This document shows positions 3,102 to 55,834 of a DNA stretch of 64,000 nt, one piece after another. Below the pieces are notes generated by a model, which saw only the letters and a program-made list of their open reading frames with translations, did no database searches and had not been told where the DNA came from. Origin of the DNA: a virus. Within the stretch, counting starts at the first letter, position 1; each line of letters begins with the position of its first letter. Location: positions 1 to 64,000 of IMG/VR virus record IMGVR_UViG_3300024346_010589; one strand, written 5' to 3'. Position numbers and translations under genes: made by a program.

Positions 3102-3106
3102 TACAC
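3102..3106 (-). promoter_or_regulatory. GTGTA[A/T] phage promoter-like motif
   Basis: One of 9 copies, all just upstream of - strand starts. Confidence 0.5.
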
Positions 3107-3111
3107 TTTTT

Positions 3112-3546
3112 TTAGCGCCTTTTACTAGGAATTGCATAAAATCCAACAACCATAAAGCACAAATCCATGAAAGACGAGAGCATCAGGCCTCCGGTCATTT
3201 GAACTAGCTCCCAATCTTTAGCCCCAAATACCCAACTAAAGAAGCCCCATCTAGTTCCTTCTCCTTTTGGTATTATTAAGTCATAAGTTATGTCTGGATT
3301 GTGGGCGTAATAGATCATCAAATAACACATCGTAAAGGTTATCGACATAAAAAGTATACGTCTTGAGACTTTCACAAAAGGATCGCTTGCTTGAGCAGAT
3401 TGGTTTTTGCAAATAGCATCAAACATAGCTGCATCTTTGGCGGCTATAAAAAGTTGGTCTTGGCGTTTTTGTTCAAGCCAAGAATTAATTAAATTACAAA
3501 GCAGTTTGATTCCTGCCCCAAGAATTGTATTTAATATGGGCCCCAT
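3112..3546 (-). CDS. membrane protein, possible holin
   Basis: N-terminal amphipathic helix, two hydrophobic helices (ILFMSITFTMCYLMIYY; LMLSSFMDLCFMVVGFYAI), basic C-terminus SKRR. Confidence 0.45.
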   Translation of the reverse strand: MGPILNTILGAGIKLLCNLINSWLEQKRQDQLFIAAKDAAMFDAICKNQSAQASDPFVKVSRRILFMSITFTMCYLMIYYAHNPDITYDLIIPKGEGTRWGFFSWVFGAKDWELVQMTGGLMLSSFMDLCFMVVGFYAIPSKRR

Positions 3547-52700: not shown

Positions 52701-55100
52701 AACCGTGTGACTCACATAGTATTCTTCCTCTGAAGACCTAATTACTGCCTGGTCTGAGGTTCCAGCTAATAAAAATATTTTAACACGTAAATCGTCCCTC
52801 TCTTCTCCTTCTTCTCCTGGACCTCCTGGCCCATTTTTTACATCCTTAACTCCGTTTATTTTGATGGATTGCCATAGCCCTTGTATTTGCCCTGGAGTCA
52901 ATTGAACCTCAGAAGCCCAGTCTTTAGCACTTACCCCTACGTCGTCTGTATTTTGCAATATATAAATAGGGTCATTTGTTGTTATTTTCTTGTCGTCACT
53001 CCTATCTTTAGCTGAAAGCTGTTTTGTGAAATCTTCAAAACCAAAAGGCCTAGTAAGCTCTGGATTTATCTGTATTATTTTTCCTGGAGAATAATCTCCT
53101 GTTATTTTATATATTGGTGATGTTGTATTGTTTTCGTCCGACAATTTTTTCATCAAGACCTTGCCTTGTTGCCCATTGTAGGTCGCCTCTTCATCAAAAA
53201 GACCCAAGAAATCACCTGCGTCAGCACCCATTTGGTAATACTCAACCCCTCCATCATGTCTGGCAGACCTTATTAGGTCTCCATCTTCATAAAACTTATC
53301 TTCGTCTATGTTTACGTACTCTCCATAGAAAGTCTGGTATCCATTAATGAGCGGGGTTGTTGTATAAAACTCAGCAGCATCACCTGCCCCCACGTAAACT
53401 ATTTCAGTTTCACTTTCGCTATAATTATGGTTCGCATGCCTACTGAAAGGATTAGCTAGGCTGGTATTTATTTTGTATGTATATTTTTCTCCAGCACCCT
53501 CTTGATATGAAATATAATCTCCCTGCTTGTATGTTTTGTTTTTTTCAAAAGGTTGAAGATTATTTGCGTTTTCTATTATGTTATTAGGATTTATTTCTCT
53601 TGGTCCGTAAAGTGGCGCGTTAATATCTTTGGTGTTTGCTGAGAATAAATATTGAGGGTCAAGCAGTGATTGATCATTTGTACCAATAACGCCGCCTCTG
53701 CTTTGTCCTATGTCTATGTCAAACTCATTTATATTATATGCGTCCTTAGGTGGAACTGTTCCCAGGTTTACTTCTTTTACTTGTGCGTCATCCAATATAA
53801 CCCCCTGAAGATAATCGTCATCGGGATTTCTTAAAAATTTAGGGTCGCTAGGGTCTGTTATTTTTTTTGATTCTTTATTGAATACTAAAGTTTCTCCGTT
53901 TTTATCACAAAGCCCATCAATTGGACCCTCGCAGGCCAAGTCTACAGCTTTATATACAGATGTTGACTCTAACTTGAACCATCCAACTCCATCATTTTTA
54001 CTACCATTTCTCCACCTCTGTCCAACTGGTATAGGAAAAAACCCTTCAAATGATTTATCTTTTCCGGCTATATATTCTATCTCTCCGTCTTCCGCAAAAG
54101 ATATTGGATAAAATTCTTTTTCTTTAACCTCGTCATCAGGCAGTGGCACGCTTTGAAGGCAAACATAAGAACTTGTAGATGCGTCCGATTCTTTTACCTT
54201 ATAGGTGTTGTCCGCTTTTGATACAGTGGTCCAGTTTCCATCGACTCCTTTCACCCCCATTCTATCTATATTGACACCCTTTAACCAGTTATAGTTGTAA
54301 TAAAAATAACCCGCAACTGCATTGCCAGTTTTCTCCTGTTTCACTGTCGTTACTGACTGCCTATAAGTGTCAGCATCTGTATACTGACCATAAATTCCAT
54401 CATTTGCTCCAAAATAAGTTGTTGGTAGGTTATTTTTTAAAAATTGATAAGCTGGATCAGAAGCCTTGAAGTCACTACTTCCATCAAATAAATTCAACGC
54501 GAATGCAGAAAACAGACAACCCTGAGGCAAGTAGTATTTACTATAACTAGGAACGAGGCTGTATAATCCTTTTTTGAAATTAAAAATTTGCCCCTTTTCC
54601 GAATCGTAATCATAATTGACAATACATGAAGATATAACATTGCTTCCAATTTTCATTCTGCCATAACCAAGAGGCACAGTTGCCCCCTGCTGGTATCTAT
54701 TATCGGACCCATTGAATAAAAACGATTGAGTTTGCGCAACTAGAGTGCTGTCGTCTCTTTCCATTGCTTCCGATATTTTCTTTGAAATATACATGCTTGC
54801 GGCGGTCTGAATTGCCATCATGAATAAGCTGCCAACGAATCCTGATCCTTGCGGCATAGGAAATATATGTATATCTTCTTTTGTTGGCAATACGTAGTCA
54901 ACTTGATCTATAAAGTTGTCGCTTTTCTCTTTTTTTATACCATAATGTATTCCTGCTTTTTCTTTCTTATTAAGGTATGATTCTATTTCTCTATCGTTAG
55001 CGAACAGTGCAGACACAGCTTCAGACGGAGAGCTAACGTCTAGCTTCCATTCCTTACCGAACTTTTTTCCAAGTTCTCCGTACAAAAATACCCTTTTCAT
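49704..55100 (-). CDS. lambda gpI-gpJ-like fused tail tip / host specificity protein
   Basis: gpI: LYGELGKKFG, VPLGYGRMKIGS; gpJ: EGPIDGL, LSYPNS, VPSNYNPETRRY.GNWDG.F, WTDNPAW, YCDE, EPRY; CTL insert; FN3-like end. Confidence 0.85.
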   Translation of the reverse strand: MKRVFLYGELGKKFGKEWKLDVSSPSEAVSALFANDREIESYLNKKEKAGIHYGIKKEKSDNFIDQVDYVLPTKEDIHIFPMPQGSGFVGSLFMMAIQTAASMYISKKISEAMERDDSTLVAQTQSFLFNGSDNRYQQGATVPLGYGRMKIGSNVISSCIVNYDYDSEKGQIFNFKKGLYSLVPSYSKYYLPQGCLFSAFALNLFDGSSDFKASDPAYQFLKNNLPTTYFGANDGIYGQYTDADTYRQSVTTVKQEKTGNAVAGYFYYNYNWLKGVNIDRMGVKGVDGNWTTVSKADNTYKVKESDASTSSYVCLQSVPLPDDEVKEKEFYPISFAEDGEIEYIAGKDKSFEGFFPIPVGQRWRNGSKNDGVGWFKLESTSVYKAVDLACEGPIDGLCDKNGETLVFNKESKKITDPSDPKFLRNPDDDYLQGVILDDAQVKEVNLGTVPPKDAYNINEFDIDIGQSRGGVIGTNDQSLLDPQYLFSANTKDINAPLYGPREINPNNIIENANNLQPFEKNKTYKQGDYISYQEGAGEKYTYKINTSLANPFSRHANHNYSESETEIVYVGAGDAAEFYTTTPLINGYQTFYGEYVNIDEDKFYEDGDLIRSARHDGGVEYYQMGADAGDFLGLFDEEATYNGQQGKVLMKKLSDENNTTSPIYKITGDYSPGKIIQINPELTRPFGFEDFTKQLSAKDRSDDKKITTNDPIYILQNTDDVGVSAKDWASEVQLTPGQIQGLWQSIKINGVKDVKNGPGGPGEEGEERDDLRVKIFLLAGTSDQAVIRSSEEEYYVSHTVINPLVEEMYVTIQIDQLSYIYEGDTIEITYKIGKLWTWIMSAYQIYHGLLAAYYAATAIKFALMATAAMVPQLAAGAGAIAGENAAAAAWELAMLAAWTVIKGFINPDDGWNIGTKIENAGEIWPNKAKFRIKYGNEGETPFSTDIYIYGVATSSYRKDVKIYLPKNPSRKDRIVKVYKLNRERNPVKEGEQAARYKETFLLSGVTEITPVQLSYPNSVVIGTRVNAKDVSSIPTRNYHLKLKKVAVPSNYNPETRRYNGNWDGRFEGQASKDDPVPEEAKLWTDNPAWCLYDLISSKRYGVGKFGIKPENIDRWTLYRIAKYCDEFIPTGYSSKTPKRKFSLSGENTISITAEGPYDDADFQSEYNHTNKKLAIYYDHGICESIKIIGTTLSGKKIILERNPAQESGECAVEIDYPLVEPRYTLNAFLMNSQNAFKLINEFAAIFRAFAYWSGGSINFFQDQKKDSVMLFANNNISKEGFSYSSTPKTSRTNSCKIKYVDKYNMFRAKMEHSEDRKSIQENNIIEQTIDGFGITSQAQAKRAADFLVKGANMETELLSFVTSSLGSYLKPGDVIDVLDNKRTIGRFAGKIVDVEISGDGKTAELMVDYPIRTIIEEDDKDTWKQITIYNTSGNQTIESLDDLGEVTDQQIEDMRAEQIKQFTVNKIYENDTKLRLVNNPYSHVTGEYTWVEALKDAEERGGILATINNEMDQVMVQAMLPEDEMAWIGGYYLELPIPEKFIWHQPQECDSNEITFFSWLDGYPRVAKEIESDLASEGNLETDHICPLGTLDIAADNEFPGEIFIAVSGSENNSIHGDWVTLSGDTKLGYILEKQADESFFNLKDNKGTTFMMEDSVNLAEPKKYKILNIAESSNGVYNIQGLEYNEDKFDNIERDLSLTQPKSPVIFTENSIDPPSEITVEILSEDIGDNIPYGVKATWSMVVAAASYRVQFFNENILLATFEVPNDKTAETISHEFRSERVVENGTYYARVYSVLT

Positions 55101-55120
55101 CCTTTTTTCCTTATGTATAT

Positions 55121-55834
55121 TTACACTAACGATGGATGTCTGTACACTTCTTTTATTTTTGCTTGCCAGCGTTCGTCCAATAACTCTCTCCTGGATAAAA
55201 TACCAGTGGCCTGATGCAAGAAGTAATCATCTCCACAATATATACCAACATGATATCTAAAATTTTTCTTTACTTGAAATAATATCACATCATGTTTTTG
55301 TAATTTTTTATCTTCTATTTTTTCTAAATTATTATTTAATATATTTATTAATAGTTTATTTGCATCTTTATCTTCTTGTGGAAGCCAATAGTTTTCATTC
55401 CATTTAGATATGTTTATGTTTAGTTCTTTTTTGAAATAGTCTTTGAACATACAAGTGCATTCAAAGAAACCCTTGATGTAAGGTTTCCCAGTAAGCTTTT
55501 CTGGCTCATAGCTTTCGGGGTAATAAAGAAAAAACTTCTTGGTTATTACGCTGTAAATTAAATAAGGAATACCCATCTCCTCAGACATGGCTATATCTGG
55601 CGGAGAAGGCTTCTCGTTGCTCCTTGGATGAGAGTGGTATATTCCTACTATTGTTTTGTCTATAGAATGTTTTATGAAGCTTTTTGGCGATATTGTAAAG
55701 CAATCTCTTGGCGCCGAATGTTCGTTTATTGCGGGCTCAACTGATACAGTTAAATCTTTATGAAGCAAAATAAATCCACACACCTCTTCCTCTGGATTAC
55801 TCTCCGCATGAACTATGACTTCTCTCTCAAACAT
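55121..55834 (-). CDS. lambda gpK-like tail assembly protein (JAB/MPN + NlpC/P60)
   Basis: EEVCG, YHSHP....PS..D JAB motif; G.FEC, HVGIY....FLH. Confidence 0.85.
   Translation of the reverse strand: MFEREVIVHAESNPEEEVCGFILLHKDLTVSVEPAINEHSAPRDCFTISPKSFIKHSIDKTIVGIYHSHPRSNEKPSPPDIAMSEEMGIPYLIYSVITKKFFLYYPESYEPEKLTGKPYIKGFFECTCMFKDYFKKELNINISKWNENYWLPQEDKDANKLLINILNNNLEKIEDKKLQKHDVILFQVKKNFRYHVGIYCGDDYFLHQATGILSRRELLDERWQAKIKEVYRHPSLV
55122..55126 (-). promoter_or_regulatory. GTGTA motif upstream of the gpI-J gene
   Basis: GTGTAAATATACATAAGG. Confidence 0.55.

Follow-up and report, generated by a model that had tools for sequence, protein, structure and literature searches.

Bases 1-64000 of the 82,063-bp IMG/VR virus record IMGVR_UViG_3300024346_010589 (hereafter the window; the record is linear and 61% complete by CheckV) carry a recurrent short motif, GTGTAW followed by two or three A/T bases (hereafter the box), ahead of genes on the - strand, together with a + strand gene for a candidate sigma factor, sigma-A. 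Placement statistics and conservation indicate that the box is very probably a promoter-type DNA signal. We further propose, with fair but lesser confidence, that it is a -10-only promoter read by sigma-A and that the resulting mRNAs start at the start codon; we infer all three parts of this proposal from sequence, i.e., the box as a promoter, sigma-A as its reader, and the exact start site.

The source is an uncultured marine tailed phage of the siphovirus type. It encodes a tail set comprising a 4033-aa tape measure protein, lambda-like M, L, K-I, and J genes, and a 1798-aa J-like fibre, as well as both the large and the small subunit of ribonucleotide reductase (RNR), a single-stranded DNA-binding protein whose gene adjoins the candidate sigma gene, and numerous glycosyltransferases, methyltransferases, and sugar-nucleotide enzymes. 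Among 50,697 GenBank phage records, we found no nucleotide match to the window and no protein match to sigma-A or to a 454-aa protein encoded further along the record; the sole GenBank phage match was the tail L protein, with 38-45% identity to proteobacterial siphophages. Querying IMG/VR with the candidate sigma returned 60 loci, in which the homologues are 37-100% identical. Two of these relatives, G001 (137.7 kb) and G002 (139.3 kb, 98% complete), are complete and were both read whole alongside the present genome, G000. Metagenome-assembled genome bins that contain sigma-A homologues are mixed in taxonomy (Flavobacteriaceae, Cellvibrionales, Coraliomargarita, Halobacteriovorax, and one archaeal bin). 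Consensus TTGACA/TATAAT early promoters, such as those described below, speak against a Bacteroidota host.

The original prediction had named nine places at which GTGTAW precedes a - strand start or element, and each of them sits within a - strand GTGTAW hexamer (Table 1). The four sites it had placed exactly 9 nt from the ATG are also as described, with 8 nt between hexamer and ATG, the earlier count having run to the A; a fifth site with this gap lies beyond the window, at 80259 of the same record. Four open reading frames (ORFs) do end in Val-stop where the box overlaps them, one with GTA TAA (15315-15785, under the box at 15317-15322) and three with GTG TAA (22976-23512, 31550-32515, and 55121-55834). 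This overlap is an incidental by-product of tight packing, since the stop precedes the box in relatives with 80% sigma identity. The claim that boxes serve - strand genes only holds for the window, where no + strand gene has one, but not for the relatives, in which the box follows the strand of its gene and may stand back to back with another box between divergent genes. Besides the candidate site at 5364-5369, further GTGTAW hexamers that had been missed lie inside genes (7145-7150 and 16731-16736) and antisense (44004-44009). In the last of these, GTGTAT is followed by atagttatatatttttt on the - strand, opposite the point where the + strand genes 42141-44048 and 44045-44452 meet; it could be the start of an antisense RNA against the early operon or a chance match.

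The TTGACA/TATAAT promoters that had been reported ahead of + strand genes are represented by two matches at 12 of 12 positions, one of them upstream of the sigma-A gene and the other, with its -10 hexamer so close to an ATG, a likely case of leaderless design within the host-type class. A 12/12 consensus promoter likewise lies ahead of the sigma-A gene in G001, where the two promoter classes occupy different parts of the genome: 31 of the 43 strong sigma70-type promoters fall within 42 kb populated by small genes (median 78 aa), while all 16 start-proximal boxes fall in the other 96 kb, which carries the large genes (Fisher p = 2.8e-7). The early small-gene region has no boxes, and its genes also lack Shine-Dalgarno sequences. 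Within the clade, sigma70-type -10 hexamers end 5-8 nt ahead of ATGs (10, 21, 19, and 17 of 155), which suggests that leaderless design is also the rule for the early class and calibrates the geometry of the box. The genes behind boxes include a GDP-mannose-dehydratase/epimerase-like gene, methyltransferases, the RNR large subunit, a protease, and the J-like tail fibre. Glycan and tail genes thus share one signal, as first proposed, in that boxes stand ahead of both the epimerase-like gene and the J-like fibre.

Table 1. Boxes, host-type promoters, sigma genes, and a hairpin in the window and in related genomes
Position	Strand	Feature	Hexamer	Distance to ATG (start)	Gene or remark
3076..3106	-	GTGTAT box, intergenic	3101-3106	22 nt (3078)	238-aa gene
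3738..3757	-	GTGTAA box	3752-3757	11 nt, in-frame ATG (3740)	64-codon ORF; box abuts stop of 3758-4750
5364..5369	-	GTGTAT then aatatatata, candidate site		50 nt (5313)	methyltransferase; absent from the original prediction
15306..15322	-	GTGTAT box	15317-15322	8 nt (15308)	576-aa GHKL-ATPase-like gene
22962..22981	-	GTGTAA box	22976-22981	11 nt (22964)	24-codon hydrophobic mini-ORF; 219 nt to 22756 start; target uncertain
23791..23807	-	GTGTAA box	23802-23807	8 nt (23793)	83-aa gene
23817..23884	-	terminator-like hairpin			dG -26.1 kcal/mol, z -4.5; between RNR small-subunit gene and 23807 box
26731..26747	-	GTGTAT box	26742-26747	8 nt (26733)	papain-like cysteine protease, 368 aa
29620..29638	-	GTGTAA box	29633-29638	10 nt (29622)	RNR large subunit
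31539..31555	-	GTGTAA box	31550-31555	8 nt (31541)	NAD-dependent epimerase / GDP-mannose-4,6-dehydratase-like gene
38386-38413	+	TTGACA-16-TGnTATAAT promoter, host type, 12/12			upstream of sigma-A gene
38603..39199	+	sigma-A gene			198 aa; divergent two-domain sigma70-family protein; candidate reader of the box
41146-41174	+	TTGACA-17-TGnTATAAT promoter, 12/12		8 nt from end of -10 hexamer (41183)	
55098..55126	-	GTGTAA box	55121-55126	20-nt leader with AAGGA (55100)	J-like tail fibre, 1798 aa
G001 84459-85208 (L068:4459-5208)	-	Cys-rich second sigma gene			
L091:1082-1819	-	Cys-rich second sigma gene			
L092:1171-1851	+	Cys-rich second sigma gene			
G002 116713-117252	+	ECF-like sigma gene			179 aa; unrelated

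Placement, conservation, and character of the box

GTGTAW as a total is below chance in the window (32 occurrences against 50.3 +/- 6.9 expected, with at least 32 in 100 of 100 shuffles). The positional enrichment over background that had been predicted emerged from an unbiased k-mer test, both in this genome and in its relatives. At positions -30 to -1 of ORF starts, GTGTA was the top 5-mer (8 against 0.68 expected; p = 6.5e-7, 659 k-mers), and it was also the top upstream 5-mer in G001 (17 against 1.3) and G002 (21 against 2.3; p = 1e-13 in each). Enrichment was 4-10 fold across all seven sigma-A clades and extended to relatives whose sigma is merely 37-54% identical. A gap of exactly 8 nt occurred at five sites in G000, against 0.017 expected (p = 1.3e-11).

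When gaps between hexamer and ATG were pooled over 73 sources (1.6 Mb, unique contexts), we found a single site at 0-7 nt, 82 sites at 8-12 nt (32, 26, 5, 15, and 4, respectively), and 45 sites at 13-35 nt; composition-matched control hexamers gave 0-15 sites at 8-12 nt in the same set. The most frequent gap is therefore also a hard minimum, which fits a fixed start site that is barred from lying inside the ORF. A Shine-Dalgarno-like sequence was present at none of the 82 short-gap sites and at 12 of the 45 longer-gap sites, where it was of the AAGGA type at gaps of 14-35 nt.

The box is also conserved at orthologous sites. Ahead of the RNR large-subunit ATG, GTGTAA stands at 8-10 nt in eight of nine distinct relative sequences with diverged flanks, and the ninth has ATGTAA. 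Relatives whose sigma is 80-100% identical retain both box and spacing at the 31555 site (the spacer being 9 nt in L004), and the flanks differ. At the J-like fibre, the G001 orthologue has a 19-nt gap. We also considered a box variant that co-varies with sigma-A and rejected it, as L082 has ATGTAA at RNR yet GTGTAA elsewhere, with no systematic shift.

Several observations suggest that the signal is a single element that acts in DNA. Aligned sites hold no more than 0.3 bit per position upstream of the box, and A/T is favoured at the first, second, and fourth base after it. A dedicated search for a -35 or any other second element at -36 to -10 relative to the box found enrichment of T-tracts alone. 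Terminator-like hairpins abut the box at 23807, which begins 10 nt past its hairpin, and at 80259, so that a two-element promoter would have no space there. Within genes, GTGTAW is depleted relative to synonymous-codon shuffles on the sense strand (41 against 68.2; ratio 0.60) and on the antisense strand (87 against 151.7; ratio 0.57), and among 14 composition-matched hexamers it shows the strongest depletion on each strand, with controls at 0.81-1.24. Since the depletion extends to the non-transcribed strand, it points to a DNA signal, with spurious promoters being avoided, and not to an mRNA signal. Together, the positional enrichment, the lack of -35 information, and the in-gene avoidance on both strands lend in silico support to the -10-only promoter that was originally proposed, and the promoter reading stood up to every computational test that was able to refute it. 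A literature search for a GTGTAW box as a phage promoter returned nothing relevant, and no description of one was found.

Other structures accompany some boxes. Ahead of the 454-aa gene, a 10-11-bp hairpin (TACACC..../....GGTGTA) has the box as its 3' arm; it lies at L003:16246-16310, i.e., genome positions 80246-80310 on the - strand. This hairpin (dG -24.6, z -8.8) shows compensatory changes in the distant relatives G001 (~64002) and G002 (~2428), and it may be a terminator overlapping a promoter or a regulated structure. Between two divergent genes ~38 nt apart, the 25-nt leader past a GTGTAW box contains a conserved palindrome, TAGATAATCTA, which looks like an operator (L025 ~13200-13240, and ~20 loci among L026-L063). 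At ~80040-80095 of G001, four GACTTTAG-like repeats stand directly upstream of a GTGTAA box, and GACTTTG stands ahead of another box (86907); the repeats could be an activator or repressor array.

Sigma-A and its place among known systems

The protein encoded at 38603-39199, which the original prediction had put forward as a phage sigma factor, has both sigma2 and sigma4 folds in its model, and its gene follows host-type consensus promoters. Its AlphaFold2 model (mean predicted local distance difference test 81) places a sigma2 domain at residues 1-107 and a sigma4 domain at residues 125-198, joined by a disordered linker, and the top 50 Foldseek matches are all sigma factors. Residues 1-107 superpose on sigmaE region 2 (4lup_C) with a Z of 10.4 and a root-mean-square deviation (rmsd) of 3.0 over 94/94 residues at 22% identity, and the match for residues 125-198 is sigmaE region 4 in complex with -35 DNA (2h27_D), with a Z of 9.2 and an rmsd of 2.4 over 68/69 residues; the sigma4 domain also matches SigD4 (3vfz_B; Z 8.9). 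Pfam gave no match for sigma-A at E <= 0.01 (Sigma70_r2 scored 12.4 bits, the cut-off being 24), Sigma70_r2 was weak in 8 of 19 homologues, and a PDB profile search with these 19 homologues returned ~40 sigma chains at E 0.01-1. Based on the model, we regard sigma-A as a two-domain sigma of the sigma70 family resembling the extracytoplasmic function (ECF; group 4) sigmas. In marine data, the family forms more than 2000 clusters when grouped at 90% identity; not one of them has a precomputed Pfam domain, and a few members have been named 'specialized sigma subunit' by the Joint Genome Institute (JGI). The most conserved part is the recognition helix of sigma4, LSIQGCINIHD (residues 175-184), in homologues that are 37-100% identical.

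Relatives carry additional sigmas. G001, G003, and G004 encode Cys-rich proteins of 226-249 aa that score above the Pfam cut-off for Sigma70_r2; this gene is absent from G002, and the ECF-like sigma of G002 is absent from G001. Sigma-A is the sole sigma common to all genomes with the box, and we favour it as the reader because of this. The pairing, which is suggested by co-occurrence and geometry, is held with less confidence than the promoter itself. Inspection of G001 by eye revealed no third motif that would belong to the second sigma. A search for a T7-like RNA polymerase gave no match, and it was uninformative since control genomes were equally silent.

T4 late promoters, TATAAATA, are read by gp55 together with gp33 and the sliding clamp, and T4 late mRNAs have leaders. 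The original prediction had taken this system as its analogue, and there are parallels in that a phage-specific -10-only promoter serves non-early genes and a phage sigma-like protein works on the host core enzyme. However, the box is GTGTAW and not TATAAATA, and gp55 is sigma2-only and needs a co-activator and a clamp, whereas sigma-A has sigma2 and sigma4. T4 is therefore not the best comparison, and phiEco32 gp36 and the sigmaE-type -10 are closer.

The closest known system is phiEco32. Once early transcription by sigma70 has taken place there, the phage sigma gp36 reads promoters that have no -35 and consist of a single element, tAATGTAtA, whose AATGTA is centred at -11.5 (PMC8948821, PMC12276001). 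In both systems, a phage sigma would be made after early transcription by host sigma70, given that sigma-A lies behind 12/12 promoters and the boxes are non-early in silico. The sequence pattern of the box also fits the phiEco32 design of one -10-region element with a TGTA core, no -35, and a start a few base pairs downstream, the start being predicted here from the ATG spacing; the box would span approximately -14 to -7. On the other hand, sigma-A has no detectable similarity to gp36 (NC_010324 phi32_36; hhalign probability 0.1, BLASTP E 1.9), the box is GTGTAW compared to AATGTA, and the mRNAs are predicted to be leaderless here.

Escherichia coli sigmaE is the best structural match for both domains and shares the two-domain architecture. 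Its -10 element reads T-13 G-12 T-11 C-10 A-9 A-8 A-7, in which C-10 is flipped out and recognized in a manner set by a variable loop (PMC4598750). TGTCAAA and TGTAWWW differ solely at the base that sigmaE flips (PMC4598750). Differences are that ECF promoters have two parts, including a -35 AAC motif, while the box has no -35, that sigma-A scores below the Pfam Sigma70_r2 cut-off, that no anti-sigma partner was identified, and that sigma-A is encoded by phages and occurs widely among marine viral contigs. Salmonella phage 7-11 offers a third comparison, as its sigma gp47 has a recognizable region 4 and serves late genes with the host core enzyme (PMC8948821); its promoters, GTAAtg-N16-aCTA (PMC8948821), are bipartite, compared to one element here.

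Proposed mechanism and alternative explanations

We propose that host RNA polymerase with its primary sigma would first read TTGACA-N17-TATAAT promoters, two of which would control the + strand block containing the sigma-A gene; a position behind host-type consensus promoters is expected of the first step in a cascade. Sigma-A would then bring the host core enzyme to box promoters. Aligned with the -10 element of sigmaE, the box would read G-14 T-13 G-12 T-11 A-10 W-9 W-8 W-7, and transcription would start 9 nt past the hexamer. Combined with the 8-nt spacing, this geometry would put +1 on the A of the ATG and yield a leaderless mRNA, while gaps of 9-12 nt would give leaders of 1-4 nt, and longer gaps would sometimes come with an AAGGA-type ribosome site. 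Box promoters would in this way control genes outside the early class, with roles in nucleotide metabolism, glycan synthesis, and the tail. A broader version of the model is more tentative, and we think it somewhat less likely than its opposite: sigma-A would found a large sigma family that Pfam does not recognize, built like an ECF sigma yet needing no -35 and starting transcripts on AUG, and both the early (host sigma70) and the later (sigma-A) programmes would be leaderless in an abundant clade of ~100-140-kb marine siphophages, with the invariant sigma4 helix contacting, for example, a partner protein or the flap instead of a -35 element.

A number of points weigh against this model. The recognition helix of sigma4 is strongly conserved, yet no -35 element lies beside the box, which also departs from the bipartite, -35-containing promoter typical of ECF sigmas. 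Unlike sigma-A, with its clear and conserved sigma4, gp36 lacks region 4 (PMC8948821). The box holds only ~11-12 bits of information, and a weight-matrix scan trained on the relatives did not distinguish promoter sites from antisense matches of equal quality. In G002, the sense-strand depletion is absent (29 against 30.7). Six public runs recorded as RNA contain part of the window, in the form of assembled contigs, some of 19 kb, in which no transcript starts are visible. Moreover, this genome is 61% complete and may, as its relatives do, have a gene for a second sigma, and an alternative sigma of the host is a possible reader.

The last of these points belong to the alternative that deserves most weight, namely that the promoter is as described but has a different reader, such as a second phage sigma (perhaps in the missing 39%), an alternative sigma from the host, or its primary sigma after redirection by a phage factor. 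The extra sigmas of the relatives and the conserved sigma4 domain of sigma-A, with no -35 element to match it, lend it some credit, and the TAWWWt that follows GTG could pass for a weak -10 hexamer. We nevertheless consider it unlikely, because neither extra sigma is common to all genomes with the box, as sigma-A is, because GTG immediately before TA is unlike the TGn in the extended -10 that primary sigmas read, and because the sigma-A gene sits where the first step of a cascade would place it.

An action in RNA, with the box in the Shine-Dalgarno position as a translational operator, a stand-in for the ribosome-binding site, or a processing site, is a good deal harder to sustain. A distance of 8-12 nt to the AUG is akin to Shine-Dalgarno spacing, the short-gap sites have no Shine-Dalgarno-like sequence, and at 80259 and its orthologues the box is part of a conserved hairpin. 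However, the gap mode sits at a hard minimum with no spread around an optimum, gaps of 14-35 nt occur and a share of the longer-gap sites have their own AAGGA, and an antisense depletion as strong as the sense one is not expected from an RNA signal. The early small-gene region lacks the box though its genes also lack Shine-Dalgarno sequences, and host-type -10 hexamers stand at the same short, fixed distance from the ATG. Least plausible of all, to the point that we give it almost no credence, is a repressor operator (at the RNR genes, e.g., one of the NrdR type) or a pattern due to base composition or chance. Two sites do flank the RNR genes, and ATATAGTGT at 15322 resembles half of an NrdR box; but the sites show no dyad symmetry, no information upstream of the box, and no 16-bp palindrome of the NrdR kind, which usually occurs in tandem upstream of RNR genes, and the majority stand ahead of genes unrelated to RNR. 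Chance would agree with a hexamer total under expectation and is excluded by the placement statistics and by conservation at orthologous sites. We therefore retain the -10-only promoter read by sigma-A as the preferred explanation.

Further features of the phage and implications

A relative ~93% identical to window positions 13000-32999 is present in 2022 marine metatranscriptome libraries as contigs of up to 19 kb; it has a 28-nt insertion after 29767 and gene-sized replacements at 15785-15791 and 16498-17370. These RNA contigs, which span several boxes, probably reflect DNA carry-over or a related strain. In one small RNA run, two low-depth contigs end on either side of the 31555 box (31298-31546 and 31560-31781), which we did not count as evidence.

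Past the 22981 box, positions 22757-22975 form a 219-nt stretch without a called gene, holding the mini-ORF only and a fold that is not significant (z -0.66). In the protease encoded at 25627-26733 (-), an acidic tail rich in repeats comes after the papain-family cysteine protease domain (Pfam E 1e-15), which is unusual for a phage. The tape measure gene (L003:2690-14791, i.e., genome 66690-78791, - strand) has a counterpart of 5036 aa in G001 (38933-54043). Strong matches to the tape measure family are confined to the N-terminal ~400-900 aa, with one weak PHROG match reaching ~residue 2060 and a weak polynucleotide-kinase-like match at residues 1386-1495.

Taken together, a box of six bases, its fixed spacing, and the candidate sigma amount to a concrete and testable regulatory code for widespread uncultured marine phages, by which operons and temporal classes become legible from sequence alone and start codons can be called better in genes without Shine-Dalgarno sequences. 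Should sigma-A work in vitro, the two would form a compact orthogonal sigma-promoter pair. If the model is true, it would add, beside phiEco32, a second and unrelated sigma family with one-box promoters, and it would provide an ECF-like sigma that works without a -35 element. The pervasive leaderless design in both promoter classes would likewise be informative about translation in the host.

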